Source: a virus (lineage: Duplodnaviria; Caudoviricetes). Taken from it: a stretch of 64,000 nucleotides of DNA. The DNA is taken from positions 44,010-108,009 of IMG/VR virus record IMGVR_UViG_3300021254_000026. The stretch is one strand, 5' to 3'. The first letter of the stretch is position 1. Every line of letters begins with the position of its first letter. Position numbers and translations under genes: made by a program. Below, piece by piece: positions 1,780 through 61,400 of this stretch. The notes under the pieces are model-generated. The model saw nothing but the letters and a program-made list of their open reading frames with translations, was not told the origin of the DNA and made no database searches.

Positions 1780-2763
1780 ATGGAAACAAATTTTACATTT
1801 ATTAATGGAAGTGACTAGAAATCTAGTTACTTTGATAATAAAACTAAATCTAATTTAGTTGTTACTATTAAAGATCCTAATAAATTAACAGATGGATATA
1901 CTAAAACTGTAATAAAAATTAATTCTGATAATAAACATGATTATTCAAAGGATTATTTAACCTTTGTTGCGTTAGAAGACGGAACGTTTGCTTTCACTGC
2001 TAGTATTCAATACTCTATTGACAACGGAAATACTTGGACACAACTTGCTCCTAATACGAATAGTCCAACAATAATGGCAGGAAATAAGATTCTTTGGAAA
2101 CAAACTAACCCAACTATTTATGACACTGCTGGTATCGGAAGCTTCGTATCTACTAATCGTTTTAATGTTGAAGGAAATGTAATGTCTTTATACTATGGTG
2201 ACGACTTTCAAGATAAAGTAGATTTAACTGGAAAGAATACTATTTTTTTAGGTTTATTTTTTAATAATCCTAATGTTATAAATGTTGAAAATTTTATTCT
2301 TCCAGCAACTATATTATCTAATTTTTGTTACATTTATATGTTTTCAGGTTGTACAAATCTAACAATTGCTCCAGCATTACCTGCAACAACGTTAGCAGAT
2401 AATTGTTATTCTTACATGTTCAACGATTGTACAAGTTTGACAACAGCACCTGAGTTACCAGCAACAACGTTGGTTAATGGTTGTTATCAATATATGTTCA
2501 GTGGTTGTACAAGTTTAACAACTGCTCCAGAATTACCTGCAGCTATATTAGCTGAAGGTTGTTATGAAGGCATGTTTAGTGATAATTGTACAAGCCTCAA
2601 TTATATCAAGTGTCTGGCAACGAATATAAGTGCTAGTAATTGTTTAACTAATTGGGTAGATGGTGTTTTATCAACTGGAACGTTCATCAAGGTTGCTAGT
2701 ATGAATGGCTGGCCAAGTGGAAAAAATGGTATACCAAATGGTTGGACAGTAGAAGATGTATAA
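1780..2763 (+). CDS. BspA/LRR_5-type leucine-rich-repeat protein (TAG=Gln)
   Basis: ATG 1780 is in frame with track ORF 2074; one TAG at 1816; tandem CTSLTTAPELPATTLxxxCYxxMF repeats. Confidence 0.8.
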
Positions 2764-2793
2764 AATTATTCAAACTAAATAAATTAATAAATT

Positions 2794-3321
2794 ATGAGTC
2801 CTAAAAGTTATGAAAATACTGAATCTGTTGTTAACTTTAACAGTCAATAGGAAGATCCTAAATTAATAAATTATTCACAACAGAAAAATAATTATATTAA
2901 TCCTAAATATGTTGAACATTTAGCAAAATAGTTTTCAAACGCTAAATGTGATGATAGTTCAATAAGTTATTAGCAAATTGGATATATTAGTTCTGATACT
3001 GGACTTATTATATTTATATGCAATAATGAAAAAATAACACTCGAATAGTTACTTTTAAGTAGTGAAGAAATTCCAAATCCTTACTCTCAAAAAAATTTAT
3101 TAAAAAAGGCTGATCCATGTATCAATGTTGAGGTAACTGATTTACCTTTAGACACTCCTGTTATATCATTAATTCCTTGTACTTCTAATAATCATGCTTT
3201 TGATGGGATGTATTTATTTATTAATTTAAATAATAATAAAGTATATAATATAAGTAGTCAATGTGGATTTGTGAAATTAAATGATTTTCATCCTTTATAT
3301 TCAGATTTTAATATTTTTTGA
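2794..3321 (+). CDS. hypothetical protein (TAG=Gln)
   Basis: ATG to TGA, 175 codons, interrupted only by 4 TAGs; absent from the ORF track. Confidence 0.7.
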
Positions 3322-3340
3322 TTTTATTGATCTTTAATTT

Positions 3341-4060
3341 ATGAAACATTTAATATAGAACTCACTTACTGATGGAGCGGGTGTTAAAAGTAATTATTTT
3401 AATTTAATTCTTTAGAAGAACGGACAAAAAATATTCTAGAAATTTGGAATTAGTAGTAGTTGTGAAAATAATAGTCAATGTAAACTTTTAGAAACTTATC
3501 CTATTTCTACGTTTGCTACGGAATATAGTGAAAATAATGAACCTGTTCCTTATGTTATAATATTAGACAAAAAGTTTTCGGAATTATCAGCAGATGGTTA
3601 TATCGCAATTATATCTCCAGATGATTCCGAACCAACTAGTATTGGAATAATTGAATAGGTTATAGAAGGAATAACAGATTACTAGTATTATGTAAGGATG
3701 GATAATGGATTATATATTACATTAGAACATGATCCTAATACAGGTAATATTAGGTTTATTATGGATAATGTTACGAATGTTGTTGGAAAATATCTTTTAG
3801 ACCGATCAAACTTAAGTTTTACTTTTTATTATCCTTGTATTGAATATACAAATGAACAAGCTGGAAGTTACGAATATGGATATTTAAATTACGATCCATT
3901 ATATTTTAAAGAACAATCTGATACAGAACTCATTTTATAGACTTTAAATGGAGTAGATGTAATTATAGACAAAAATAATCCTGAAAATTGTAGAATTAAT
4001 TTAAATGGATTAGAGCCTGAAAATGTAGTTCTGATAATAAAAATAGAACCTGGAAAATGA
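3341..4060 (+). CDS. hypothetical protein (TAG=Gln)
   Basis: 239 codons, 6 TAGs; contains track ORF 3698..3940; ATGA overlap with the next gene. Confidence 0.75.
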
Positions 4061-4734
4061 AATATTTAAGAAAAGTATATTATCCACATAAGTCTAATGG
4101 AGATCCAGATTTTAGTTAGCTTTCAAATATATTTGATGCTAATGATTATTATAATACGTCTAATGGAATTGGAATTGATAGTAACAATTCAGTAGAAGTT
4201 GTTGTAGGTATAAATATATTAAATAATCCTGATCTTTGGAGACAAGCGCAGTTATTTTATTCTAGTGTAATAGTTCCTTAGTATGACATTAGATATAACA
4301 AAAATTCTAATACTTCTGTTTATACTGGTTATGGTTCTCTTTATTCTGATTATATAACATTTGGAAATCCTGGATCTAATTATATACACAGCATCTATGG
4401 AGAAGATTCTTATAATAAAGTGAAATCTAATTGTATTTATGATATAAATAATTTAGAAAACAGCGACCATCTTGTAGGAATAGATATTGGCCCTGAAGTT
4501 GCATTTTGCAGTTAGCTGTTTCAAAGTAATGCTTCAGTTAAGTATATAACTTTTTATTCGAGTGTTCCAGTTCAATATGATGTTGAAGGACAATAGTCAA
4601 ATTATTCAATTAATTTTAGTAATTCATTAAAAGCTATTGTAGTTGATGATGTATATTATTCTAATTTCAAAAATAGTTTAGCATTTAGTTTAGTATCTAA
4701 TAAGATTATGAAAATATCCCAGGTATCTTTGTAA
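4057..4734 (+). CDS. hypothetical protein with LRR-cap-like C-terminus (TAG=Gln)
   Basis: 225 codons, 4 TAGs; C-terminus AIVVDDVYYSNFKNSLAFSLVSNKIMKIS resembles BspA-type caps. Confidence 0.7.
4724..4731 (+). promoter_or_regulatory. Bacteroidota -7 element TATCTTTG
   Basis: Matches TAnnTTTG just upstream of the structured RNA; no clear -33 element. Confidence 0.4.
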
Positions 4735-4744
4735 TATTATCAGA

Positions 4745-5036
4745 ATTTGTGAAGTCTAAAGTAATAACGAGAAACGGAGATCATTTATTGTAATAAAAAG
4801 CAGGACGGCTGTGTTATGAGACTAATTAGGAGTTGAATCAGTGCTACAACTAACATTGCATAATCAGTCCAGTGGACATCGGACTTCACTAATTCAACTT
4901 TCCGATATACTACTATCATAATCGCGGAATTAGATTTCTTCGGCTCTTTGATTTAATCTCCTTATCTGACAGAGAACCGAATTAATTCTATAATGCAGTC
5001 AGGCCTGCTTTTATTATATTTCATACACTCACAAAT
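4745..5036 (+). ncRNA. unassigned ~290-nt multi-branched structured RNA
   Basis: Nested helices 4745-52/5029-36, 4791-4804/5004-16, 4814-19/4916-21, 4831-38/4892-99, 4866-70/4881-85, 4927-32/4983-88, 4939-43/4977-81; no ORF; strand inferred from the upstream promoter. Confidence 0.65.
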
Positions 5037-5064
5037 ATATTTTGTACATCAGAACTAAAACCAT

Positions 5065-5095
5065 TTTGATATTTTGAGAATAACAAATAACTTTG
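5065..5095 (+). promoter_or_regulatory. canonical Bacteroidota RpoD promoter
   Basis: TTTG-N19-TAACTTTG, 26 nt before ATG 5122. Confidence 0.7.
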
Positions 5096-5121
5096 TAATA
5101 TCAAACTTTAAATAGAATAAT

Positions 5122-6612
5122 ATGGCAGAAACAACTTATTACAAGAAACCAATGTCCGTAGTCAGATATGATGAAAATGGATAGAAGTATTTAGAACTTT
5201 TGCCAACTACTGTAGAAGGGAATAGAGCATATACAGATTATGGTGAAGTTCAAGATATGCGTCCATTAGATAATACTGTTCAACAGAGAAGATGGTACAC
5301 AGCCACTAACGCAAAGAAAATGAATAGAGCACTTCCATATGTTGCTGGAACATTAGCAAGTCCTGTTATGTTAGTAGGAGGAATTGGTGCAACTGCAAGC
5401 GAAGCTCTTGTACCTACTGTAGGTAAAGCATTGAACTTTGGAATGAGAGCTATGACTCCATCCTCATATACAGGATTATTTGGAACAGGAACATATAATA
5501 CCGCCTTAGGTGGAAGTGGAGCAAGTGCCCTCGGAGCAGCTGCTGATGCAGGATTAGCAAGTTACTATGCAGCTTCGGCAAAAAGAGCCTATGATAATAA
5601 TCCTAACTTAAGACATGGAATTGAGTTGGGATTAGCTGCATTGCCTGCGATTGCTACTTCAAAAGTTGTGTGGAAAGCAAGAATACCCCGATTTAACCCT
5701 ATTTACGAATCCGATATTCCAGAATTGTAGAAACTATTAGACGAAAATAAATTCGTAGAAAAAATAACTTCAGACGGACAAAAGATAAAGATGTATTTTC
5801 CTTCAGGAAACAAACAGCCGATGAGAGAAGATGAATTAATAAATTTACTTGCTCGATATAATAAACGTACATTATCTCCTTCAGAAATAGAATCTGCTAA
5901 AAAAGCTCCTGATATAATCAATCAATTTGAAAAAGAAGGTATAAAAGGATTTACAGATGATTTTTGGTTTTAGGGATTAGATAGAGAAATTACTTAGTTA
6001 GACAAAGATATATTTCATAGTCATATACCTGAATATTACGATTTATATTAGGATCTTACTAAATCTGGTAATTTAATTAAGAAAGGGGATACTTGGTATG
6101 GAAAATTTTCTAACGGTATGCAAGAAGTACATCCAGAGGAATATATTGTTGCTCACTCTAAAGCATTTATTAATTCTGGTTTAAAATATGATGGATAGAA
6201 TAGAATGAGTGCAATGAGTAAAGATAAATATGATGAATTTATTAAAAACGGAGGACTTGGAGCAACAACGTGGACTACAAACAATTCTAAACAAGGTAGT
6301 GTGTTTCTAAAAGAAAGAGAACCTGGACGTCTTGTTCAAAATTTAGTTAGTACTGACGCTCCTTAGATAAAAATATCAACAGAGAATGCAAAAGTAGGCA
6401 GAGAAGTAGAACACGGAATTTAGTATTCTCCGAATGTAAATTACAGACAGACAACTGGAGATTATATGTTATTTGGTCACGATATGTAGATGAAAGCACT
6501 TCGTGGGAATAATGGAGATTTTAATATGAGAAATAGACATTACTTACGAAATTTTGGAGTTCCTATAATTTTAGGAGGCAGCTTAGTTGGTAATATAAGA
6601 AGTAATAATTAA
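5122..6612 (+). CDS. putative effector with Gly/Ala-rich N-region and diverged ADP-ribosyltransferase-like C-region (TAG=Gln)
   Basis: 496 codons, 9 TAGs; joins track ORFs 5200 and 5791; C-terminal YMLFGHDMQMKALRGNNGDF resembles the QIKSA-GNNG-F tail of polyvalent-protein ART domains. ORF is solid; function is tentative. Confidence 0.65.
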
Positions 6613-7948: not shown

Positions 7949-8124
7949 AAAAAAGGAGAGCGAATAAGTACCCTTATTACTCTCCAATGAATTATCTGAT
8001 AAAATCTGTTTATCTTTGCTCTATCTCTTATTTGTTGAGCAATAACTTTATCCGAAATAGCCGCACATGTACTCAAGAGAACCTGACATGTTGCCTCAAA
8101 GACTGGCTATATATGATAATTCAT
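7949..8124 (-). ncRNA. unassigned ~175-nt RNA: three-way junction plus terminator
   Basis: Perfect 10-bp closing stem 7987-96/8115-24; two internal arms; terminator GGAGAG/CTCTCC plus T6 on the - strand; own promoter. Confidence 0.7.
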
Positions 8125-8128
8125 GCTG

Positions 8129-8160
8129 CAAAGGTACGGACTATTCTTGTTATTTGCAAG
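8129..8160 (-). promoter_or_regulatory. Bacteroidota RpoD promoter on the - strand
   Basis: CTTG-N20-TACCTTTG; predicted start ~8124 coincides with the RNA closing stem. Confidence 0.7.
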
Positions 8161-8210
8161 GATTTTCCGTATCTTGCACAAGGTTGTGAGAACAGAATCT
8201 CAAATTTTAT

Positions 8211-8241
8211 TTTGATTTTTCATGCAAAGATGATATATTAA
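8211..8241 (+). promoter_or_regulatory. variant promoter for the tmRNA/tRNA unit
   Basis: TTTG-N19-TATATTAA; near-identical to the site at 28070. Confidence 0.55.
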
Positions 8242-8245
8242 TTAA

Positions 8246-8467
8246 GTTGTGATGAAATATTTTTGAAAATTTGTAAGACGAGGTTTCGATTACCTCCTAG
8301 TCCACTTTAGGATTTTTATTTTATGGGCTAGTTAAGGGATTGATTGCAAACAAGTAGAAATTATGGAGCAACAAGCCAAAATAAATGGCAATAAATCAAT
8401 TTTTCTTGATAGAGTCACTAGGTTGGCTGCTTGATAGCGTTAATAGTGAAGAACGAAATCTTCACTA
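8246..8467 (+). ncRNA. ssrA: circularly permuted (two-piece) tmRNA
   Basis: GAC + T-arm GAGGT-TTCGATT-ACCTC + 3' acceptor CTAGTCC-A (8297-8304) lies BEFORE the 5' acceptor GGGCTAG (8325-31); G3.U70 pair; tag GNKSIFLDRVTRLAA-TGA at 8387-8434; outer ends approximate. Confidence 0.9.
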
Positions 8468-11228: not shown

Positions 11229-11558
11229 ATGGAAGAAAACGAAAAATCAGATTTTAGAATACAAGAAGAAGATTTCATAATGGAACCAGTTAAAGAAGGA
11301 TCTTCCTTCTTTAATTTGGTTTTTATGAAAAAGACTAAAAAAAGAAATACGGGTGAAATTGTAATTGAACCCGGAAAACCGATGTATGGATTACCATTGC
11401 ATGCAGCATTGTTAAGAATTGTACATCATAAAACTTCTAAAAAACTTCAAGGAAGAACTGTACAGCTAAAAGAATTTTTGGTTGAGTTTCAAAAAGAATT
11501 TAAAGAAATGATAGAACTATGTCACGAAACTTTACCAGAACGATTGAAATATCAATAA
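11229..11558 (+). CDS. hypothetical protein
   Basis: 109-aa ORF. Confidence 0.7.
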   Translation: MEENEKSDFRIQEEDFIMEPVKEGSSFFNLVFMKKTKKRNTGEIVIEPGKPMYGLPLHAALLRIVHHKTSKKLQGRTVQLKEFLVEFQKEFKEMIELCHETLPERLKYQ

Positions 11559-11857
11559 TCATAATTCTTTTAGTAGTAGAGTTCTTTTTTGTTAAGAGTT
11601 TATATTATAAATCAGATAATACGGATATACTCATTAGAAAAATAGATAAATTAGAAAAACAGTTAAATGTTTTATCTAATAAGAAAGATAGTATTAGAAT
11701 TGTTATAGATACTATCAACAACGAAATAGTTCGTAACAATTACTACTATGAAAAAACTAATGATATTATTATTTCTCAACCTAGTGATTCAGATGCCGCT
11801 TTTGTCAGATACTATATCAGTAGATTCTGTGAAAGCCACGGCTATAATCTTCAATGA
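11519..11857 (+). CDS. membrane-anchored coiled-coil protein (spanin-like topology)
   Basis: N-terminal TM segment, then coiled coil; overlaps the next gene. Confidence 0.55.
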   Translation: MSRNFTRTIEISIIIILLVVEFFFVKSLYYKSDNTDILIRKIDKLEKQLNVLSNKKDSIRIVIDTINNEIVRNNYYYEKTNDIIISQPSDSDAAFVRYYISRFCESHGYNLQ

Positions 11858-12726: not shown

Positions 12727-13614
12727 ATGAATACTACATTAGGTGATGCGTTAACTAAGGCTTTAGATAATAAGAAACCAGATTATTCTCAATTTAAATG
12801 GAAGGGACCAAAGGTAAGAGAAGGAGATAAAACAGTTCAAGAAACAGTTAAACTTGTTGATGCAAATCCAGCACAATTAATTACCTGGTATAATCATTGT
12901 GAAAAAATGTTAAATAATGAGGATCCTAGGAATCCTGGAAGATACAATGTGTTTGAACAAGTAAAGGATGAAATGTATAAGTGTAATATTGAACTATTGA
13001 TTCGATATTTTAAGAATGCTTATTTGTCTGGTTCTAGACCTTCTATTGAGAGATCTGAACTTGTTCCTATGTTATTTTCACTTCAGCACAACAATCCTGA
13101 AATTGAAGATTGGAGTAAGGTTAAAATGAATCAGATAAATGCTATGGAATCTTATATTCCTGGTGGAATTCCTGATGAATTTGCAAATATATCTGTAACA
13201 GATCTTATGTCTGGTTGTACTAATAGTCTTGGTTCATTTGATAAAAGTCATTTAACAATGACATTTATTGTAAAAATGGGTTTATGGATTACTAAGTCAG
13301 AGGAAAATGAACTTAAGGGTAACGATAATTCTAATGGTGAAAGATTGAGAGTTGCTAAAGAAAGACTACATATTCCTGCTAAATTGAATTTGAAATTTAG
13401 TGATAAAGGACTATCGTTTCATGAAATGCGAGCAATTTTGACACTTCCTAAACGTCAAAGATATTCAGACATGACTACTGAACAATTAATAACTTTAAGA
13501 AATTTAGTATTGCCTAGATATTTGAAGGAAGTAGACAATCACATCTATTCGTGGAAGCAACTGAAAAGACAAATAGAACTTGTTGCTAAAAGTAAAAATA
13601 TAAAGTTATCATGA
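12727..13614 (+). CDS. hypothetical protein
   Basis: 295 aa; coupled to the helicase. Confidence 0.8.
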   Translation: MNTTLGDALTKALDNKKPDYSQFKWKGPKVREGDKTVQETVKLVDANPAQLITWYNHCEKMLNNEDPRNPGRYNVFEQVKDEMYKCNIELLIRYFKNAYLSGSRPSIERSELVPMLFSLQHNNPEIEDWSKVKMNQINAMESYIPGGIPDEFANISVTDLMSGCTNSLGSFDKSHLTMTFIVKMGLWITKSEENELKGNDNSNGERLRVAKERLHIPAKLNLKFSDKGLSFHEMRAILTLPKRQRYSDMTTEQLITLRNLVLPRYLKEVDNHIYSWKQLKRQIELVAKSKNIKLS

Positions 13615-14870
13615 CAAGAACTGAACGACAACAAGAAGCTATAAGAAGATGGTTAAAATCTAAAGGCAAAGGAACAATAGAAATGCCTACGGGGGTTGGT
13701 AAAACTAGGACAGCTATAATGACTGTTAAAAAAGTATTAGAGAAATATCCAAATCTTAGAATTCTTGTTGTCGTTCCTACTACTACTTTAAAAGAACAAT
13801 GGGAAAGTCAATTAACTGATTGGGATATAATATTTAATGCAGAAGTTCAAGTAATTAATTCTGTAATTAAACATAATTGGACTTGTGATTTTTTAATTTT
13901 AGATGAAGTGCATCGTTATAGTGCTGAAACATTCTCAGAAGTATTTCAAAAAGTTAAATATAAACTTATAATGGGTTTAACTGCTACTTTTGAAAGGTTA
14001 GATGGAAAACATGTAATTATTGAAAAATTTTGTCCGATTGTTGATAAAGTTTCTAAAGAAGAAGCAATTATTAATGGTTGGATTTCAGAGTATAAAGAAT
14101 ATCAAGTACTTTTAAATGTAGATGATATTGAATATTACAAACAGTTAAATAAAGAATTTGTTAAATATTTTGAATTTTTTGGTTTTGATTTCAAAAAAGC
14201 GATGGATTGCCTTGGTCCTAATGGATGGCAAAATAAGTTAAGACTTCGTGATGAAATTTATCAAGGTAATGATGAATCTGAAAGAAAGAAAATCCTTCAA
14301 TTAATTACTATAAACGCTATGGGTCTTCAAAGAACTATGGCACAAAGAAAAGCATTCATTAATAATCATCCAAAAAAGATTGAAATTGCTAGAAAAATCA
14401 TGGAAGCTCGACCTAATTCGAAAATTATAACATTTAGTAAAAGTGTTAAAATGGCTGAAGCCTTAGAAAACGGACAGAATGTATATACTGGAAAAATTTC
14501 TAAGAAAAAAGGTAGAGTAATGATTGAAGATTTTAATGATGTTGATGTAGGACATTTACATACATGCAGTAAGGCTGATGAAGGCCTCGATTGTAAAGGC
14601 TTATCAGTAGCTATAATACTTGGATTTGATAGTAGTGAAACTAAAGCTAGACAAAGAAGAGGTCGAGCAATTCGTAAAGAAGGAGATAAACAAGCTGAAA
14701 TATTTTATCTTGTTATTAACGATACTCAAGAATTATCTTGGTTTAAAAACTCACACAAATCTGATTCAGATTATTTAACAATTGATGAACATGGACTTGA
14801 ACAAGTTCTTAATGGAGAAGTTCCTGATTTATATATGAAAAAACAAGCACAATTTACTTTTAGATTTTAA
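13611..14870 (+). CDS. superfamily 2 DExH helicase
   Basis: PTGVGKT, DEVH, GLTAT, DEGLD, QRRGRAIR. Confidence 0.93.
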   Translation: MTRTERQQEAIRRWLKSKGKGTIEMPTGVGKTRTAIMTVKKVLEKYPNLRILVVVPTTTLKEQWESQLTDWDIIFNAEVQVINSVIKHNWTCDFLILDEVHRYSAETFSEVFQKVKYKLIMGLTATFERLDGKHVIIEKFCPIVDKVSKEEAIINGWISEYKEYQVLLNVDDIEYYKQLNKEFVKYFEFFGFDFKKAMDCLGPNGWQNKLRLRDEIYQGNDESERKKILQLITINAMGLQRTMAQRKAFINNHPKKIEIARKIMEARPNSKIITFSKSVKMAEALENGQNVYTGKISKKKGRVMIEDFNDVDVGHLHTCSKADEGLDCKGLSVAIILGFDSSETKARQRRGRAIRKEGDKQAEIFYLVINDTQELSWFKNSHKSDSDYLTIDEHGLEQVLNGEVPDLYMKKQAQFTFRF

Positions 14871-49408: not shown

Positions 49409-49425
49409 TCTTCCCTTATTTTTTT
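49379..49425. terminator. bidirectional terminator between convergent modules
   Basis: AAGGGAAGATTAACC/GGTTAGTCTTCCCTT flanked by an A-run and a T-run. Confidence 0.85.
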
Positions 49426-52400
49426 ATTCTTCTTTTCCGTTATCTCCAATTTTTCTTCCCAAAGTTGATAATTTTATATAATCCCACATAGGTTTAGTTG
49501 CATTAGTAGAACCATTAGATTTAATTAAGAAATCATATAAGTCTTGTTTTCCAGTTCCAACTTTTATTAAATTCTAAGCAAGTCTATCTGTACTTTGAAT
49601 TGCGAATGGTGTCCAGTCTTTGCCTCTACCAAATATAGATTCTATAAAATTAGCATCTAATGTTGAAGCTTTAAGTATTTGAGTACCTCCACTTAAAATA
49701 GTATTAGTAAATGCTTTACTAACAGAATCATTTCCAGATGCTTTAACATAATCTTTAACTTGAGTTTCTACTGAACCAAGAAGCAAGTTTCCAATAAGTA
49801 ACCATATTAATAAATCAGAAATAAGCTATCTCATATTAGAACTATATAATCTTCTAATTTGAGGATCAATCTCTTCATTGTTAAATAAATCCTAAATAGC
49901 TACTATTCCAGATTTATTTGTCATATCAGATTTTCCAGCAAATGCTTTTATTAATTCAATTCCAGTAAGAAAAATTCCTTCCTGTGGTCTTCCTTTCCAT
50001 ACTTGAAGTGGAACTCCAGTATTTTCAGTAGTAGGAATTAAATCTCCGTCTTCATCCTCTTTCCAATAATAAAACTAACCATTCTCTTCATATTGAGACC
50101 AATCACCTTCTTGAGTAAAAGAACGGGTTTGAGCATATTGGTTTTTCTTAGCAGACCAATATGTATTCATCTGCATTAACATAGAGCCAACTAAACTGGA
50201 ATGAATCATAGATTTCTTTTCATGGGCATAATATCCGTATATTCTATCGGATAAAGCCTTCATTCCTTCTGACTATTGATTAGTATACGCTTTAGGAAGA
50301 GATTGAATATTTTTTAAATCTAATTTAAATAACGAACCATCCTCATTTCTTGCTCCTTCTTGCTCTAACTACTATCCCATAGTTATATAAAGAGACTTCT
50401 ATCGGTTATATTTTTCTAAGTTAGATTTATCCCCCTTAGCAAAGACATCAAATCGTTTATCTTTAGTCCAATCATAAATAAGTTTACCATCAACCATTTT
50501 ATGTGCATCAAGACTTCCATCTTTATACATTTGTGCATAGAAAATAGTCATACGGTTGTAATAGTCAGGTCTAGAAGCAAACCTAAATCCAACATTCCAG
50601 AAATGATAAAGAAGTCCGGTATTATCAGTTTTAATTCTATCAATATAGCTATTAGCATCCATGTCATTAAATCCGTATTGTTGATTTAATAATTCTCCCA
50701 TTGTAAAATTATTTCCGAAATGTGCTAAATCAGACATTGCCAGTTTCCAACCATTTAATAATCCTTCCTTAGTAAATGGAGTTCCTTCTTCTGGAGTATT
50801 TCTAAAATATAATTGACAATCCTTCCATATTCCATCTAAGAACTAATACCATTGTCTTGGATTAAATGCTAAAGCTAATTTAGATGCAGTTGACATCATA
50901 GTTTTTGTTACATCAGCTGCAACCTATTCTAGTCCATCTTTTCTATTTTCAACAGGTTGATTATGTATTCTTGTTTTAACATACTTTAAAATATATTCCA
51001 AGTCATTTTGAAATTTATCATTAAGAATAGCTCCTTGAGCATTTAAATTGAGAGTAAGTGCTCTAAGAACCGGGAATATATTATTTAATTCGTCGGACAT
51101 TTTATAAGCTGAAGTATGTTTTAGCAGAAGAGTTTCAACATTATGTTCAAAGTAGGATTTTCCACCTAGTGCTTCACTACTTAAAAGTTGTTGACGATAT
51201 TCATCGTTATCTTCAGAAGCATCAAATGAATTAATTGCTTCCCACATATCTTCATTCTCAATCCTTTCCTATTGAGCATCATTAAGAAGATTAGTAGCAG
51301 CTTTATCAAATCTTTCTTTTAATCTAGAAGGAGATAACATTGCAAATCTACTTCTAATAAAATTCATCCATCCACCTCTAACAGCAATTTCAGAAGTTAA
51401 GTCTCCTTTAACAAGAGGGACTCTTAAATACTTAGCAGGATTAGATTTTATTAAATTCTCAATGTTATTAGGATCAAAATTCTTTATACGATTATCATTA
51501 ATCTTTAATAAAGCAAATTTTAAGAAATCTCTTTCTTCGTTAGAAAGATTAACATTATTATCCCAAGGATTAACAAACATTAAGTCTTCACTATCCTAAT
51601 CAAACATATTCTAATAAAGAGAAGAAACTTGGTTTCCAACTATATATTGTGAAATTAATCCAAATCCTTTAGCTTTCTTTAGAGCTTCAACTTTCTATCT
51701 TAATTCTTGATTAAAAGCTATAACATTATCTCTAACATTCTAATAAGCTTTTGTTACCTAATCAGTAAATTCATTAAGGGTTTTACTCTAAAGTGTTCCA
51801 GGATTATCAATTTCTGTACCTGAGATTCCTCCAGCTAATGTAAATTTAGCATGGTCTTCAATCTATTGTAAAAGTTTTACTCCAGATAATTGAGATATCG
51901 CAAATAGAATATCTTGGTGTAATTTATATTCTGGATTGTTTTCCTCGTTTTGAATTGTCCCCTTTTCTTGTTTTAATTGAGGATAAGATTCTACAAGACT
52001 TCTATCTAATTCAATTAATCTCTACCTTATTACCTAAGGATTATCTCCAAGATTATCCAAATCAGATACACAGCTCTTTATTTCATTTTTAATACTTTGA
52101 TAAATTTTACCTAAACCTTTTTCTGTATTAGGAGATTCTAATACTTCTCTAAATGTTTCTCTACATATGTCTAAACGAGAAGCCATTTTAATAATTCCTT
52201 CAGAATCATTTCTTTCATCCACAAAGTTATTAGTAATTTTTCCTAATTTACAAAGTCTTCTAAAATTATCAAGTAGTTGTTCATTAGAAGCAGTTAAACC
52301 TTTCTACGAACGAGGAACAATTAATTCTATTTTTCCAATTCCATGGGTCTGATTAGCAAATAATTGTGGAAGTTTATTAATAAGTAACATTGCTTCCATT

Positions 52401-54352
52401 ATTTCAACATTACCTATAATACCATCCATTACTTGTGAATTAGAGTCTGCATTTACAACTTCATCTGCAATGAATGTCCCAAGTAAAGAATTTCTATTTT
52501 TAGAGTTTTCTCCACCTAATTTTGCAGACATTGTCGGATCATACTAATCAGAAATTTTAACAACATCAATTAATCCTGTAATTCTATTTTTAAATAATAA
52601 TATTCCGAGCTAATCAAGTACAGGATCTAAGTCGGTTGCTGTTAAAAGTTGGTATTTAATACTATTATTATATTTTCCAAGTTGTTTCTACAACCATAAT
52701 GGATCATCACTACTATATGATTTACCTCCAGATAGATTATGAAAGTCTACAAGTTCATCATTCTCCATAGCCTAAACAAATGATTTTCTAATAGAGGAAG
52801 TAGTAATTGGAATATAGTCTTCTCTTTTCTAGAACTTCTATTTTACTTTATCAAATATTTGAGCTTCTGCTTCTGCTTGAGATTTAGTTCCGCTAACAAC
52901 CTCTTTATTTTTATCATTAGATTTAGAATATTTAAATTCCCAGTTGTTAGTAATTTTATTTTTCTTTACTCCACCATGACTTTGGATATATTTAGTAATA
53001 TCTTCGTCAGTCATATTTTTTTTCTTAGCTAATTCTTTAAATAAGATTTTTTCTTCATCTTGGATAGCAGAAAGAATTTCTCCAGTAGATAGGTTTTCTA
53101 AATTTAACACTGAAGGAAATATTTGTTCTAAATTAGACTCAATTGTATGATAAAGATTACCACCAGTAGTATATTTAGTATTAGGAAGCATTTGAATAGC
53201 AGTATCTAATGAAGATACTCCGTCAAACTGAACCTTTTTAGTAGTAGAATCAAATCTATAATTCTAAAATTGTAATGGAATTATAGCTAAATCAATTTCA
53301 GCGGAAGAATTAATTCCAATAGAGTTTAATAGTCTACGATAAGCAGCTAACTAATATTGAAATGTTCTAATTTTAGCAGGATCGTATTTAGTTGGATCTT
53401 CTTGTTCATTAAATTCGGTATATTCTTTAGGAGAACATTTAAAGTCTAAAATTCCCATTCTACCATCTCTAGATACAACAAATAAGTCCATTTTACCTAC
53501 AATTGGTATAGAATCATTACCGAATACTCCACTACCAGTAACTTTCTTTTCAGAAAGAATCATACAATCATCACCGTATTTATCTCTAATTTCTTTATCA
53601 ATTTTACGAGATTGTTCTACCATAGAATCAATTAAAGAATCAGAAATATAGTCCTAATACTTTTTATAGAATTCTTCTTTAACTTTATTTTTAAAAGCAT
53701 TTCTAAGTTCAGTTTCTGTAAGATTGCAGAATCTTTTTTCATTGTCTTTAGATTTATAAAAATCAGAAAGAATAGCGTGAACTAAATCACCACAAAGAGC
53801 TTGTTGTTTCCAAACATCAGTCATTCTTTCTCTTATTTTCTCAAGAGTACTTGAATCTATAACAGGTTGTAACTAATCTCCAACCTTTGGGATTAAATCT
53901 TCAACAAATGGAAGTTGTATAGCTACTTTAGGATCGTCGTATTTACCCTATCTATATTTTTCTAACTAACCTCCAGAGTTATTAGGCCCATTCCAATAAT
54001 TATCTTCTATAAATATAGGGAATAAAGGATGTTCCTAACCGTTAGAATCAATAGTACGGATTTCATGAATTAATTCAGTAATAGATTTATAACGTCCATT
54101 TCCTTTTAATCCATCCATATCCTCAGGTTCCCCCTCTTCTTCTGGAGTTTTTATTTCTCCTCTTTTTATAGCATCTTCAACAGCTTTATTAGAACTATTA
54201 ATCTTATCTAAAGTAGTTAATTGCTATCTACTCCAGTTTTTAAATACTATATCTCCAAGAGAAGGTTTTAGTGCAGAAGTAACTAAAAGATATTCATCTA
54301 AATCTGCTTCTGATTCAAAAACTCTATTATTGTATATATACTTACATTTCAT
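49424..54352 (-). CDS. giant virion-type protein with PD-(D/E)xK nuclease domain (TAG=Gln), 1642 aa
   Basis: Nine track fragments share one frame and end at TAG; ATG 54352 (MKCKYIYNN) to TAA 49424; GKMDL...ILDFK...Y*LAAY. Confidence 0.85.
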
Positions 54353-55416
54353 GAGCAATCCTACATTAATTCATTTTTGTTTATAAGTTCCTCTTTAGTA
54401 TTAGCCATTATCCTATGAATAGTAGCATCATCTAGAGTTCCCAAAGTATCTACATCAAAGTTATCTGAATCAAGTTCTTCAGCTAACTATATTAATGATT
54501 TTTCAAATATACTAGATAAACTTTTAACACTTTGTTTTCCAAATACTATAGAATCAATATCTCTTTTAATATTATACATTATAGTATTTATTATAGAAGG
54601 TTCTACAGAATCAAACATACTAGATTGTCCTGTAATGTGTTTAGCAAGTTCGTTAACAAATATTTCTTCCTAAACATCACTTATAGTTCTTCCTGGAAAT
54701 TCTTGTGCTAAGATATTAAAATTAGGAAGTTGTTCAGTACTCTAAACTAACTAAAAATAAAGATTTGGATTTCCAAATCTAATTGAACCTAAAAATAAAT
54801 GAAGTTGCTCGTGAATAGGAGCATCAACTGTAGCAGAATCAGTGTTTACATAAATATTTCCATTTAATATAAATGCTTGGGCTTCTGAAACAGGAAGTCC
54901 TTCAAAAGCTGGACTATTTAATTCCGATTTAGTAATAGGAATCATTTGTATTCCATAATATTTTTGGAGCCTATCTAAAGCACTTCTTAATATTACAGAA
55001 TTAGATTCTCTAGAACCATCAAAATCGATTGATTTTTTTTCTATTTTATCGTCATTATATTCTGTAGGACGATGTAAAGTTTCAACTATAACAGCAGAAT
55101 TAAGTGGGTTTAAATGAACTTCTAAATCAGTATGTTCTTTATTAATTAAAACCATTGCTTCCTCTGGAGTATCAGTTCCTGTAACTTCCTATAATTTATC
55201 TATTGTAGTATATTTTGAATCCTTAGTAGATTTAATATCTAACTATTTATTTAAATGTTCCTCTGAATTAGCATAAGGAATTTCATCTAATTCAGGAAAT
55301 CTCCCATGTTTTTCTGAAAATCCTCTTATAAAAGAATTGACAGAAAACTCTGAAAGTCCAGACATATCTTTCAATATCTGGGCTTTCTGAGTATCTTTTA
55401 TTTCACAATAATTCAT
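54349..55416 (-). CDS. HExxH (zincin-like) protein (TAG=Gln), 355 aa
   Basis: ATGA overlaps at both ends; at least 7 in-frame TAGs; NGNIYVN...APIHEQLHLFLG. Confidence 0.85.
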
Positions 55417-58400
55417 TGGCAATTATTTTCATCATTGAATATAGTATCTAAAGCACTTTGAATAACTTCAAGATTATATACTTTCTATTTATTCTTAGTT
55501 TGTTTTATAAATATTTCGGAAAGTTTTGTAGCAAATCCTTTCTATTTAGCTAAATTAAGAATCTAATCAGTAGAGTATTCTGTTCCTTCGTATTGAACTT
55601 TAATATCTTTAATTTTAGCTTCATTAGTCATTTTATAATTTCCAAATTCTAACATTTCATTAGGATTCTCTTCAGGTTCACTTTGAGATTGTGTTTGAAC
55701 CTATCCTACAAGAACATATTTTGCTCTTTCTAGAATACTACTCATATCTGATTTTGAAACTGTTCCTTCATCCATTTCTGGACCACCTTCAAGTTCATCT
55801 AATAAATCCTAATTCTCTTCTGTACTAGAAGAATTATCATTAGAACTAGTTTTATAATATAATGAAACTTTACCAGTTTCTCTATTTCTTACATAAATAA
55901 ATGGAATTTTTAACGAAGGCTTGATTTCAAAAATATTCATTAAAGGAGCAATAGCTATCATTAATTCTTCATCAGAACTAAATTGAACAGGAATGTTTTC
56001 GTGATTAGACCAAAATTCATTATATTGTCTTATAGATTCAAAATTATTTGCTGAAACTAAATCTTCAAATAAATCTGTAAGAGATAACTATCCTGCCTAA
56101 TTGTTATAAGCAATTATATTATAATAGAATAACTAACTAACAACTTTAGCCGGAAGTTTATCTAAATCACCCTTAGCTAAATCGAACTATACTAAATCAG
56201 ATGGGTTTTTAGTATTAACCTATCTTATTTTAGCAAGATTTATTGTTTGATTATGGTCAGGATTATAATCATAGCTTCTATAACCCAAATACTATAAGAA
56301 TTTATTTGCAGGATATTTAGACTATAATTCTGGGAATACTATATATTGTATCCAATCTTTAAACTTTTGATTATCTTTGTCATAACCTAAAGTTATAGAT
56401 TGTGTACCCTCTTCCATTACAACCTTTCCATCTTTTATTTCAAACTAAGGAATAGTATATTTTATGTTTCTGCTTCTTAAATATTCCTAATTAATTTTAC
56501 GATATATAGTTGGAAGAATATTTCTTCTAATCTACTCAACTGTTTTAGAATTAGCGTTCATTTTTGGAACAATTCTATCGTTAATATCTAGAGCTGTTCT
56601 ATAAGCGGTAGAAGAGTTTTTACCCATCTATATTGCAAGATTAGCTGTTCTTAAGTATGAATGATAATGACTTACTCCATCAACAACTTTAAATATATTC
56701 ACAGCAAATTTAATTTTACCATAAATATCCTTTACTAACTTATTATATTCAGAGTCTGATACAAAAGCATTTAAATCTACATAGTAAGGAGATTTCTAAA
56801 CATCGATTGATATAAGTCCCTAATCATATAATTGCTAATTGAGTTGTTGTAATTGATTAAGTTGGTCCTAAACATCATAGTATTTAGTAACATTTTCCTA
56901 ACCAACGGTTCCTATTCTCTTTGTGATAATAGAACCAAAATTACTCAAGAAATTAAATTGGTCTTCCATTTTATTTGGAATACCTTGGTTAAGAGCAAGT
57001 AATGGACGTAATGCAGACATTTCTTGTGAAAATTCATCAAGTCTAGCAATTTGTGTTAATATCTTATGTTGTTCTCCATCCATTCCTTCAACTAAATCAT
57101 TATCTACAATATTTTGGTAATCAATCCAATTCACTATTTCATCCATATTTGATAAGAAATATGAATTACCATAGAAATTAGAACGAATTTTCTTAATTTC
57201 AGAAGTAAAATCTTCAGAACTTATTTCCTAAATTCTATCAATTAAATTTGAAATTTCATTATTAGTAGGAGAGGAATTTTTATCATCAAGATACTTGTAT
57301 AAATCATTAATCTATTCTTGAACTACAGCTTTCTTTGCTTTTAATTCATTAAGTTTATTTAATGTAGAATTTTCTTCTTCGGTAAGAGCTTCCCCGTCAT
57401 TCAAATTCTATCTTTTTTCTAATAATGAATTAAGTAATTCTTCTCTTTTTTTACTAAATCCTCTATACTCATGAGTTCCTTTTAATAAAGCAATCTAATC
57501 TTTAATAAATTGTTCTCTATCAAACTGTAATAAAGAAGATTCTGCATTTGGATTAGATAAGAATTTAAATATTTTCCTTAATTGTTCACGAAGGTTTTTA
57601 TTCTTTAAGAATTCATCCAATTTAGTTTTACTTAAAACTTCTTCTGGTTGGAGTAATCCTAATCTCTGGAATAATGGAGAAATATCTTTATACTACTAAT
57701 CATTAAAGTAAACAGAAGGTGGTCTTTGTAAGTATTGAATAGCTTGAGTTAATCTGTTAAACCCTTTTTGTTCATTAAATACATTACCCTTAGTAAGATT
57801 ACTTAAAAGAATACCTGTATCACTTAATGTAAGTTTTGCAACTTCTTCTACTGATAATCCGAGTATAACACCTGAATTAAATAAGGACATCATTTCTGGA
57901 CCCGAATTTAATTTAGCAAGTACAGGGTCTTTTGCGTTATCGGTTGCCAAACTTAATAATGCTGACTTAATAAGAAATGCATCATTATAATTATCAACAG
58001 TTCTAAGAGCTTCTCTTGCTTTTTCACTTTTAATATTATCAGAATTTCTAGTATAAGCATTAGCAATCATTTGAACCCTATGTCCATTGATTACTCTATC
58101 AAATACTAAATCATCCTAATCTTCTTCTGAACCTTCATCAAGAGTTTGATAAATATACTAACTTATTCCTTCAAAGTTTTTAAGCGATGATGCTACAATA
58201 CCCACATTCTCTTTACCAGCAAGTGTGAGAGTAAGCATAAAAAATTTAGAAAATACTGAACCTCTATCAGCTTTAGTAGAAGCAGCAAGTAATCTTTGGA
58301 ATTCAGGTTTCTTTAACAAATCTTTTACTTTAGCTGTTTGGTCATCGATAGCTGCTTGGGCTTGTATCTAATTAATAGGACTCTTAGAAATGTCTTTAGT

Positions 58401-61400
58401 TCTAATAGATACAAAGTTATAAGCAGCATCTCTTCTATCTTTTCCTTTTAAAAAAGTATTGTGATAATCAACAATATTTTTAATATTAGGATTAACTGTT
58501 TCTGGAACATATCCTAATTTGTTATAAGTTCTAATAAGAATACCTAAATCTGGAGCTAATTCAATTATATTCTCCGAAATTCGTTTAATATTAATATCCT
58601 AAGCTAAACTTTCTCTAGTAAATATACTTTCATTAAATTCATCGAAATCAACATTTATGTTATACTATTTAGTATTAATTCCATCTCTAATTCCTAATGC
58701 TTCTAGATTTCTATTAGAAATATTAAAATTATAACGTATTCTAATTCCTTCTGGAATTTTAGAAATAGCATTTCTTAATAATTCGTACTATTCTAAAGGT
58801 GGATAAGACTCAAAACTATCAGAACAATTTAAATAAACATCTCCGGTTTCAGGATTTGTAAATATCACTAAAGAATTACCATTTCGAGTATAGATTATTG
58901 TTTCACCTAAATCTCCAGTAATTACAGTTAAATTATTCTATAAAACATCATAAGGTCTTCTTTCCCCTTCCCTTACTTCCAATTCCTTGTTAGTAGGGAA
59001 TGGTAATTTCTTAGAAGATTCGAAAGTATCTTTGGACTACATGTTAAAATAAGGGCTCCATGTCTTAAGTTTTCCATGATTAAACTTTAAACCTAATACG
59101 GAGATCTTATCGATATCATAATCGGATCCTTGTAACCAAAGCTACCAACGTGATACATATGCAGAGTTCTTAGACTCACTTCCAAACGCTGCAACCTCCA
59201 TTGCCATGAATGATTGCTAAGATTGTGCTGGAGTTCTAGATACTACCATTTCTAATGATGATAAGAATGATGTATGAGTTTCAATTCCAGACTTAATCAT
59301 TCCTCTAAATATAGGATTTTGCTAAGCAAGTTGCTCTAAACTAATTCCTTCGTTCAAATCACTTTCAAATTGTGATATTTTTTGTTTAGTGAATTCGGAA
59401 TCATTAGCTATAAAGTTTACAGCTTCATTTAGCAAATCTTCATCTTCTAATATATCAGAAACAGTTAAAGTAATATCTTCAGTTAATAAATCTGCTAATT
59501 CAGTATTTCCTAAAGCAGTATTTAGCACTGAATTTATAAAATTGTTTCCAACCTAGAGTCTATTCTAATAACGATTATTAATAACTCTAGTTATTAAATC
59601 TAGTTTTTTTCTAACAGTTTTGTTAGTACTTTCATCAAGCTATCTTAAAATCTAACTCTTATCTCCCCAACTATCAGCTGAGAATATAATATGAGAATAA
59701 TTAAATTCATCTAAGAAATGAGCTAAATTGTTAGAATAAATTACTTCCTAACCATCAAATGTTCTATAAATTTGAACATCACGAATGATTGTTCCGTTTT
59801 CTCCAAGATGATAAGGAATAGAATACATTCTCTATCCATCTGGTGTTATTCTATAAACAACATCACCATCTATTTCTATATCGAAATTAACAGGAGTTAA
59901 TTCTCCCTAATCAATAACTTGTGGGATTAATCCTAAATAGATGTGATTGCCATTTAAAGTTTTTAATTCTAAATCGTAAAGAGAAGTTTTCTCTATTTTA
60001 GATTTCCAATTCTATAAAGCTCTTCTGATAAAGAAAGCCTAGTCTTCTTTGATACTCTTAATATTATCACCTTCCTTTAATCCGAATTCAGTTTTATACA
60101 TCATCGGCATGATAGCTTCATATCCTTTAGTTTCTGTTTTAGATTTATCAACTCTGACTCTCTATCCATTTACATATACTTCAGATTCAACACCTTCAGA
60201 TAAAGCATTTAAATCACTTTGAAGCTATCTTCTTAATTGAATTTTAGCTTCTTCGTCTTCAGAATTATTTAGTTCCCAAAGCCTTCTAACAGAATCAAGT
60301 TCCCAAATACTATAATAATTTCCTTCAGTATCAGCAAATCTTACTTGATACATTGATAAATCGTGACCAACAGGTTTAGATTCATCATCCATAACGGATT
60401 CGTATACTATAACTCCACTTTCTAATTGAGGCTGTAGTAAATAAATACTAGCAGGAGTAGTCATATTTATAATAGGTCCAATTTCTCCAGTTTCTGGATT
60501 TATAGTTCTATAATTATGACCTATTTGTATTCTAGATAAATCAGTTATAAGATTTTGTTTATTAGCATTTTCTAATGCTTGTAATTCTTCAGGATGTGCA
60601 TCGTAATATCCAGATAAATGACCATCTATAATATTAAATCTTCTGTTAGATGGATTTAATACTAACATTCCTCCTTCGAACTTAAGTCTAATTGCTTTTT
60701 CAAGCTAAGAAGAAATACTAGAAATCATCTTCTAGAATATTGCAGGATGACTTATTGGGAACTTACCTTCAATATTAGACCAATCAAATTTATTATTTCC
60801 TATATCAGTTAATGAAGCAGCTAAAGCATTTAACATATTTCCATCATCACTAGATACTCTAGTAAGAGTTTTATATATAATTTGTGCAATAGCATTTTTT
60901 AATAATTCAGGATTTCCAGAAGTATTTAATGCTTCTAATCCTTCTAATCCATCCTTATTAACTACTTCTGCAATAGCTTCGAGAGCTTCATAACATTCTT
61001 GAGCTTGTTCTCTAGAATATCCACGAGCACCTAAAGCATTAATTACCTGAGTCATAAGAGAAACGGATTCATCTTCAGCGTTATGTTCAGCATCAAGCTG
61101 TTCTCCTATATCATAGGAATTTATAGTCATATATGTTAGATGATAATCATCATTAAAGTAAGCATCTTTAGTATTGATATTAGCACCTCCGTATTTTACA
61201 GCACCACCAGTTGCAATAATATCAATTTGGGCTTTCTTTAATACTTGGTCTACTCCAGTCTAATCAAATATTTTATCATATTTTTTAACACCAACATTGT
61301 TAATAGCTTTTACAAGCATTTCAACTGAAGTATTATCTTGTAAATAAGTTAAATTGCCATCAGAATTAATGTGTCCAGAATAAGCTCCTCCAAATACATT

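Follow-up and report, generated by a model that had tools for sequence, protein, structure and literature searches.

Phage T4 encodes two stable RNAs, C and D (species 1 and 2), which lie in its tRNA cluster, are approximately 120-140 nt long and are cut from tRNA precursors. They resemble the non-coding element described here in being phage-encoded, abundant, folded small RNAs, with functions still to be assigned, that occur among or in place of tRNA-type genes; unlike the element, which has no tRNA-like module, they are shorter and derive from tRNA precursors, and the two are likened from description alone. The ornate RNAs GOLLD and ROOL are multi-branched, occur in phages and prophages, often beside tRNA genes, and form homo-oligomeric cages, as seen by cryo-EM (PMC12286853). 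The element is likewise a multi-branched phage RNA with a function still to be assigned, but GOLLD and ROOL are several-fold larger, and their Rfam models do not match it even at E<=10. With 6S RNA the element shares the size of about 200 nt, the long closing helix at its ends and the abundance in total RNA; however, 6S RNA is a rod with a central bubble, whereas both the ensemble and the centroid of the element are branched (arms H2 and H4 at 0.8-0.9), and no 6S model matches it, hence this assignment was rejected. Finally, attenuating leaders (riboswitches, T-boxes) also comprise a long folded region before a gene, in which a helix runs into U's and two pairings exclude each other. In the element, unlike such leaders, the stem that resembles a terminator encloses the entire domain, a promoter-like box is situated between the element and the gene, there is neither a family match nor UGGU, and the competing pairing is lost in the variant X7 described below.

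The window, that is, the whole stretch of DNA analysed (64 kb), is the right-hand part of a 108-kb IMG/VR virus record with an estimated completeness of 62%. Without TAG as a sense codon, neither the plus-strand genes at 1780-6612 nor the giant minus-strand genes at 49424-63983 would be open. In the family of the late gene P0002, situated downstream of the element, the aligned codon 21 (window 5182-5184) reads TAG in four of the sequences compared (the window, L009, L011, L013, L014 and L016) and CAA (Gln) in the other two, and this alternation directly supports the reading of TAG as Gln. The record contains 12 tRNA genes in all, and tRNA-Ser(ACU) adjoins the amber-suppressor tRNA(CUA). As genes start without a Shine-Dalgarno sequence, and TAnnTTTG boxes are found ahead of many genes and of the tmRNA, the promoter and start signals resemble those of Bacteroidota. 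The source is a large TAG=Gln-recoded gut phage with Bacteroidota-like promoter motifs. The features of the locus are listed in Table 1.

Table 1. The element, its surroundings, core substitutions and related RNA genes (positions are those of the window unless another sequence is named).
Feature	Position	Strand	Description
Upstream gene P0001	4057-4734		4 TAGs
Gap with the element	4735-5121		387 nt; between TAG=Gln late genes P0001 and P0002
Promoter-like box	4724-4737	+	TATCTTTGTAATAT; Bacteroidota-type TAnnTTTG -7 motif; overlaps the last codons and stop of P0001
Putative 5' leader	4738-4788	+	holds GAAUUUGUGAAGUC (4743-4756) and GGAGAU (4776-4781)
Folded core	4789-5018		~230 nt; GC-enriched
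Closing helix H1	4789-4818 with 4989-5018		28 bp, one bulged A, one A/G mismatch
Arm H2	4829-4901		14-bp helix 4829-4843 with 4887-4901; inner hairpin 4866-4870 with 4881-4885
Junction segment	4902-4925		weak hairpin 4904-4907/4914-4917 or 4901-4904/4925-4928; probability 0.27-0.47
Arm H4	4926-4989		weak lower helix 4926-4933/4982-4989; upper helix 4939-4950/4970-4981, 11 bp
H4 apical loop	4951-4969		19 nt; contains AAUCUCCUUAUCU
U-rich tract	5009-5020	+	UUUUAUUAUAUU; runs out of H1; may serve as termination signal
Box	5032-5039	-	TATATTTG; could drive a minus-strand transcript of the element
Second copy of the 14-nt box	5088-5101	+	TAACTTTGTAATAT; 34 nt ahead of the P0002 ATG
Downstream late gene P0002	5122-6612	+	496 aa, 9 TAG=Gln codons
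Substitution T4994C	H1		G.U to G-C; L013, X7
Substitution G5003T	H1		A/G mismatch to A-U; L013, X7
Substitution A4955C	H4 loop		L013
Substitution A4969G	H4 loop		L013
Substitution A4971G	H4		U-A to U.G; X7
Permuted tmRNA (RF04321)	8245-8434		47.3 bits, just above the cut-off of 47
Permuted tmRNA (RF04321)	L009 4586-4773		57.2 bits
Permuted tmRNA (RF04321)	L011 73-261		53.9 bits
Amber-suppressor tRNA(CUA)	G000:C1 10760-10834	-	outside the window; U1.U72 pair, A73

The element lies in a stretch that an earlier note had described as free of open reading frames, and indeed its longest frame under the TAG=Gln code is 44 aa. A 44-aa frame of the minus strand is broken by a net +40-nt replacement in X7, and a 21-aa frame (4993-5058) loses its ATG via T4994C in both L013 and X7; with the loss of this frame, a type I toxin-antitoxin system, in which an antisense RNA overlaps a small, hydrophobic and conserved ORF, was rejected. 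The GC content of the element is 0.38, compared with 0.22-0.27 in the neighbouring non-coding DNA.

The multi-branched character of the fold, also claimed earlier, was reproduced, with about seven helical segments predicted. The two strands of the closing helix H1 are approximately 170 nt apart; its mean pair probability is 0.72-0.90 (0.72 in the window), while that of H2 is 0.79-0.85 and that of the upper H4 helix is 0.87-0.91. In the window, the MFE structure is a rod-like alternative, whose extension has a pair probability of 0.04, but the ensemble and centroid folds are branched and consist of H1, H2 and H4, with H2 and the upper part of H4 at 0.83-0.87. In the sister strain L013 the branched fold itself is the MFE structure, with H1, H2 and the upper part of H4 at 0.79-0.91. 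A perfect 10-nt palindrome (GAATTAATTC / GAAUUAAUUC, 4979-4988) is situated at the base of arm H4 and is a possible dimerisation site.

When the folding energy was compared with that of shuffled sequences, z for 4745-5036 was -2.46 on the plus strand and -3.05 on the minus strand. For the core 4789-5018 the values were -3.06 and -4.26, and for the L013 core -5.42 and -6.01, with none of 200 shuffles as good as the latter; for the core of either the window or L013, at most one shuffle of 200 folds as well. Thus, a folding energy distinct from that of shuffled controls, as the earlier note required of a structured RNA, was observed, but the element is not a genome-wide outlier: z of 237-nt windows along the genome has a heavy tail (mean -1.1, 5th percentile -4.3), and about 6% of these windows reach the z of the window's copy, an estimate that is noisy at 12 shuffles per window. 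As so many genome windows fold as well, energy alone does not single out the element; it supports the structure and is no proof of it. Other 237-nt windows with very low z (from -5 to -8, 12 shuffles) are 1601-1840, 13601-13840, 11361-11600 and 8001-8240.

Natural variation was observed in two sequences. The first, L013, is an ENA scaffold that was reached via protein P0016 and also matches the DNA run X2; it is collinear with the window over 3500-5264 and carries four substitutions in the core. The second, X7, is a 2.5-kb contig of a run from a third study. It shares with the window just 4752-4816 and 4882-5247, at approximately 92-97% identity, the outer flanks being unlike; 105 unlike nucleotides stand in place of 4817-4881, and the sequence from 4882 onward is kept. 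Over the two sequences, five core substitutions were found (Table 1), three fitting the helices, where each keeps a base pair or makes a new one, and two located in the H4 loop. With the four changes of L013, the MFE falls from -58.3 kcal/mol in the window to -67.2 kcal/mol. Among the window, L013 and the partial X7 copy no pair is changed on both sides (0 compensatory double changes), as the obtainable sequences are only near-identical. The segment 4902-4925 is unchanged in all three sequences, and so is 4882-4968, save for A4955C. As X7 keeps the 3' strand of H2 and not its 5' strand, this arm is either variable or mis-assigned. In all three sequences the element travels together with the first 42-48 codons of P0002, whereas both outer flanks change, with mosaic breakpoints near the element at approximately 4752 and 5247-5265.

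Eight sequencing runs from three studies match the element, and four of them were compared with the 3.5 kb around it. The runs are stored as contigs, which carry no strand, true ends or expression level, and in which an uncovered stretch is only a contig gap. X4, the metatranscriptome made from the source sample, has two contigs that match the element exactly (4802-4911, depth 13.7; 4882-4963, depth 14.4), and the contigs of the flanking genes (3729-4054 and 5665-5815) have a depth of 3.2-3.5; thus, the element has approximately 4-fold the depth of these genes. X5, a metatranscriptome that belongs to another study, has a single contig within the 3.5 kb, which covers 4834-5004 (171 nt, depth 4.5, 100% identity). 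The union of the RNA contigs of both runs is 4802-5004, and none of them leaves the core bounded by H1. No contig of X4 or X5 lies over the leader 4738-4801 or the spacer 5005-5121, which is a contig gap and not evidence of absence. DNA carry-over as the source of the RNA signal would not pick out a single patch of 200 nt, though it cannot be formally excluded. The transcript that the earlier note anticipated is present in two independent gut metatranscriptome studies, and in these the RNA of the element exceeds that of the neighbouring genes (X4, X5), as is generally asked of a functional structured non-coding RNA. One X4 contig contains a back-joint from 4963/4970 to 4878/4885 (it goes back 86, with seven shared letters); it may reflect an artefact of an abundant structured RNA such as template switching, a variant carrying a duplication, or an RNA that is circular or permuted.

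At the gathering score, Rfam 15 matched just two tRNAs and the permuted tmRNA in the whole window, all outside the element. For 4600-5200 at E<=10 with permissive filters, only two chance-level matches were obtained, STnc430 (21.7 bits, cut-off 47) and sR30 (12.1 bits, cut-off 38), consistent with the earlier impression that the element matches no recognised RNA family. No match to 4700-5121 was found by blastn among 50,697 phage records, and nothing was found by exact and degenerate pattern scans, including a peptide pattern, of viral, metagenome and genome contigs, nor by exact-pattern scans of the conserved core in all three collections. The element is single-copy in the 108-kb record according to BLAST and a covariance model. 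Searches by nhmmer, blastn and the covariance model R1 revealed no other copy in 25 related or DUF1810-anchored loci, nor was there one in the phage's own genome. Retrieval anchored on proteins (P0002, its N-terminus, P0001 and the DUF1810 neighbour) yielded one element-bearing sister strain, L013. Among 5.8 billion proteins, the homologues closest to P0002 share 39-48% identity with it, and the DNA ahead of their genes is different. The distribution of the element is very narrow, with no copy found beyond its own lineage. The element is real, non-coding, folded and present as RNA, and has no known family. The proposal of a new phage non-coding RNA is supported by the empty Rfam searches, by exact, core-confined RNA contigs from two studies and by the helix-fitting substitutions.

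Several known types of elements were tried and rejected. A tmRNA or tRNA relic would contain a tRNA-like domain made of an acceptor stem and a T arm, and none was detected in 4600-5200 by ARAGORN or by the Rfam tRNA and tmRNA models. Hammerhead, twister, pistol and HDV-like ribozymes gave no Rfam match, and none of their core motifs was seen by eye. As an antisense RNA to the 5' region of P0002, the element ranks 123rd by duplex energy among 294 background windows. A DGR or retron template is contradicted by the absence of a second copy, as is a MITE- or IS-derived repeat in the 108-kb record, the mismatches of the inverted repeat also being of the G.U type on one strand.

The position of the element was compared with that of the P0002-type genes in relatives. 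In L009 and L010, tRNA-His, a permuted tmRNA and tRNA-Thr directly precede such a gene, and in L011 and L012 it is directly preceded by a tRNA and a permuted tmRNA; the N-termini of the P0002-type genes in these four loci are 64-67% identical to that of P0002. The tag of the tmRNA predicted by ARAGORN is GNNNYFLDRATRLAA in both L011 and L012. In the window, a permuted tmRNA and two tRNAs are found 3.2 kb further on. In L002 (3643-4000) and L003 (3294-4000), the same slot is occupied by a conserved non-coding block of about 300 nt, at whose end there is a tRNA-like unit that neither ARAGORN nor Rfam calls. This unit has acceptor, D and T arms; the anticodon arm has been replaced in L002, while in L003 it is larger by approximately 85 nt.

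As to start signals, the -7 box TATCTTTG reported earlier is present at 4724-4731. The bare TAnnTTTG motif is common in the window (46 copies on the plus strand, 57 on the minus strand), many copies being located just before gene starts, whereas TAnnTTTGTAATAT occurs just twice in 64 kb, at 4724 and 5088. The two 14-nt boxes (4724-4737 and 5088-5101) form a direct repeat with 13 of 14 identical positions that brackets the element, which suggests that the element and P0002 each have a start signal of their own. The plus-strand promoter is not conserved in X7, as no TAnnTTTG is seen in the 30 nt visible before 4752.

The best explanation, to which we assign about an even chance, is that the core is a gene for a stable, strongly folded small RNA of the phage, approximately 200-230 nt long. 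The main reason for preferring a stable trans-acting RNA to a riboswitch is that the slot houses stable RNA genes in relatives; the box at 5088 together with this slot was counted for a stand-alone RNA, whereas the constant linkage of the element to the first codons of P0002 would also fit a role in cis. The RNA would accumulate as a separate molecule closed by H1, with the arms H2 and H4 and the weak junction hairpin, and would belong to the phage's set of stable RNAs rather than being a riboswitch of the next gene. Plus-strand transcription may start at the 4724 box or proceed by read-through from the upstream gene, and the 3' end may be made by H1 with the U tract or by cleavage within H1. 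Presumably the RNA works in trans; binding a protein or serving as a decoy would be examples of such a role.

Recoding TAG to Gln obliges a phage to reprogramme the translation of its host, and to this end such phages bring tRNAs, suppressor tRNAs and even tmRNAs with them. An abundant, folded RNA without a family, situated in the tRNA/tmRNA slot of its relatives, is a candidate RNA player in this translation takeover, or a decoy RNA, and it is small enough for direct tests. A stronger version of the stable-RNA reading, in which the element would found a class of its own among the stable RNAs of phages, would replace the tRNA/tmRNA cluster ahead of a TAG-gated late gene and would act on the translation apparatus in the recoded late switch, is improbable at present. 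A lead for this version is that the H4 loop AAUCUCCUUAUCU may resemble the CCUCCUU 3' tail of 16S rRNA, and hence could titrate the binders of this tail or GGAG-like leaders. Given the narrow distribution and the lack of covariation support, we consider the element a well-documented lead and not a discovery.

The main functional rival is a cis-acting 5' leader, similar to an attenuator or a riboswitch, of the TAG-gated gene P0002, which we consider unlikely. In this case, transcription would start at the 4724 box, and the fold with the U tract would stop most transcripts, which would accumulate as a short RNA, while the polymerase would continue past this point whenever 4743-4756 paired with 4882-4895 and H2 did not form. 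Such a pairing is seen in the sequence: the perfect complementarity of GTGAAGTC (4749-4756) and GACTTCAC (4882-4889), noticed earlier, holds and extends to 13 matches of 14, an inverted repeat as good being found in 6 of 300 dinucleotide shuffles, and it is mutually exclusive with H2. Moreover, H1 enters the U-rich tract approximately 100 nt before the ATG of P0002, the element and the beginning of this gene stay together in the window, L013 and X7, and an excess over the mRNA, as seen here, is typical of terminated leaders.

However, the alternative pairing of the window and L013 is not kept in X7. The leader of the latter differs left of 4752, with AGACTT-GCGA-AAGTCT in place of GAATTTGTGAAGTC, and hence neither the 14-nt competing helix nor the outer helix 4745-4752/5029-5036, just 8 bp long, is conserved. 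No RNA contig covers the leader or bridges 5004-5122, a gap that in itself proves nothing, and a copy of the promoter-like box is placed between the element and P0002. It would also be atypical for the two strands of a terminator stem to be separated by about 170 nt. The consensus scan for intrinsic terminators (a short GC-rich hairpin with a loop of 3-8 followed by a T run) found none in 4400-5400, as the 'loop' of H1 has about 170 nt, although H1 is the sole helix, a long-range one, that precedes a U-rich tract in this region. No riboswitch or T-box model of Rfam matches, and the homologous genes of the relatives have tRNA and tmRNA genes at this place instead.

The T-box variant of the leader can be addressed separately. 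T-boxes contain a UGGN bulge complementary to the NCCA end of the tRNA. The suppressor tRNA(CUA) has A73, so its ACCA end would have to be met by UGGU; there is no UGGU in the core 4789-5018 and no match to RF00230 at E<=10, and a T-box sensor of the suppressor tRNA was rejected.

Two suggestions of the earlier note are not supported by these observations. A switch finds no backing, as the leader segment 4749-4756 has no RNA contig, X7 lacks both the competing pairing and the outer helix, and the box at 5088-5101 intervenes. A pseudoknot between GGAGAT (4776-4781) and ATCTCC (4956-4961) was likewise not upheld: both motifs are present, and the fold favoured by the ensemble places the second one in the 19-nt loop at the tip of H4, but by our estimate a 6-nt match is at chance level, and the leader partner has no RNA contig.

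The stable RNA gene could also be read from the minus strand, a doubtful variant of the best explanation, and we slightly favour transcription from the plus strand. A minus-strand unit would be driven by the box at 5039-5032, start at approximately 5025 and end at the U5 run 4799-4795 after the same helix H1, giving a leaderless, antisense-oriented unit of about 230 nt. The box and the U5 run immediately flank the helix, and this run is better than the one on the plus strand. The minus-strand fold is slightly better, both in MFE (-62.2 kcal/mol, z -4.26 in the window; -71.6 kcal/mol, z -6.01 in L013) and in the agreement between the MFE and centroid structures, which is closer than on the plus strand and shows a clean four-way junction. 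Its unpaired bases include 20 G and 7 C, the paucity of C being usual for structured RNAs, and the RNA contigs fit both strands equally well. On the other hand, H1 read from the plus strand has five G.U pairs and no A/C, whereas on the minus strand the same positions turn into five A/C mismatches. Similarly, A4971G of X7 is tolerated only on the plus strand, as U.G, and would make an A/C mismatch in H4 on the minus strand. All genes for 49 kb around are on the plus strand, and with 57 copies the TAnnTTTG motif is frequent on the minus strand by chance.

A considerably weaker possibility is that the element is the 3'-end structure of the upstream late operon, a terminator or insulator, and that the RNA is a protected 3' fragment left over from mRNA decay, a by-product whose only role is to end and stabilise the upstream message; we regard this as quite improbable. 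The element does follow directly after the P0001 stop, with H1 and the U tract on its 3' side, its depth is higher than that of the upstream gene, and the outer 15 bp of H1 alone resemble a bidirectional terminator stem. However, the upstream gene of X7 is unrelated in DNA, yet the element is retained from 4752 on; approximately 170 nt of internal, partly invariant structure would be superfluous for termination, and the substitutions respect the inner arm H4 as well. Least probable of all is a DNA-level or chance feature (a decayed MITE-like palindrome, a recombination site or a fortuitous AT-rich fold with incidental RNA), to which the similar folding of both strands, the bracketing direct repeats at 4724 and 5088, the adjoining mosaic breakpoints and the share of genome windows reaching the same z might point, but which is hardly compatible with a single-copy element whose H1 mismatches are, one A/G aside, of the G.U type on one strand and not random, whose z in L013 is from -5.4 to -6.0, and whose patch is selected out of 3.5 kb by the RNA contigs of two studies.

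We also observed that in the window, L013 and X7 the P0002-type genes have a constant N-terminus (42-48 codons), while their C-terminal parts are swapped. The encoded proteins differ in length accordingly, with 496 aa in the window and 142 aa in L013, and 5122-5265 of the window corresponds to 5001-5144 of L013.
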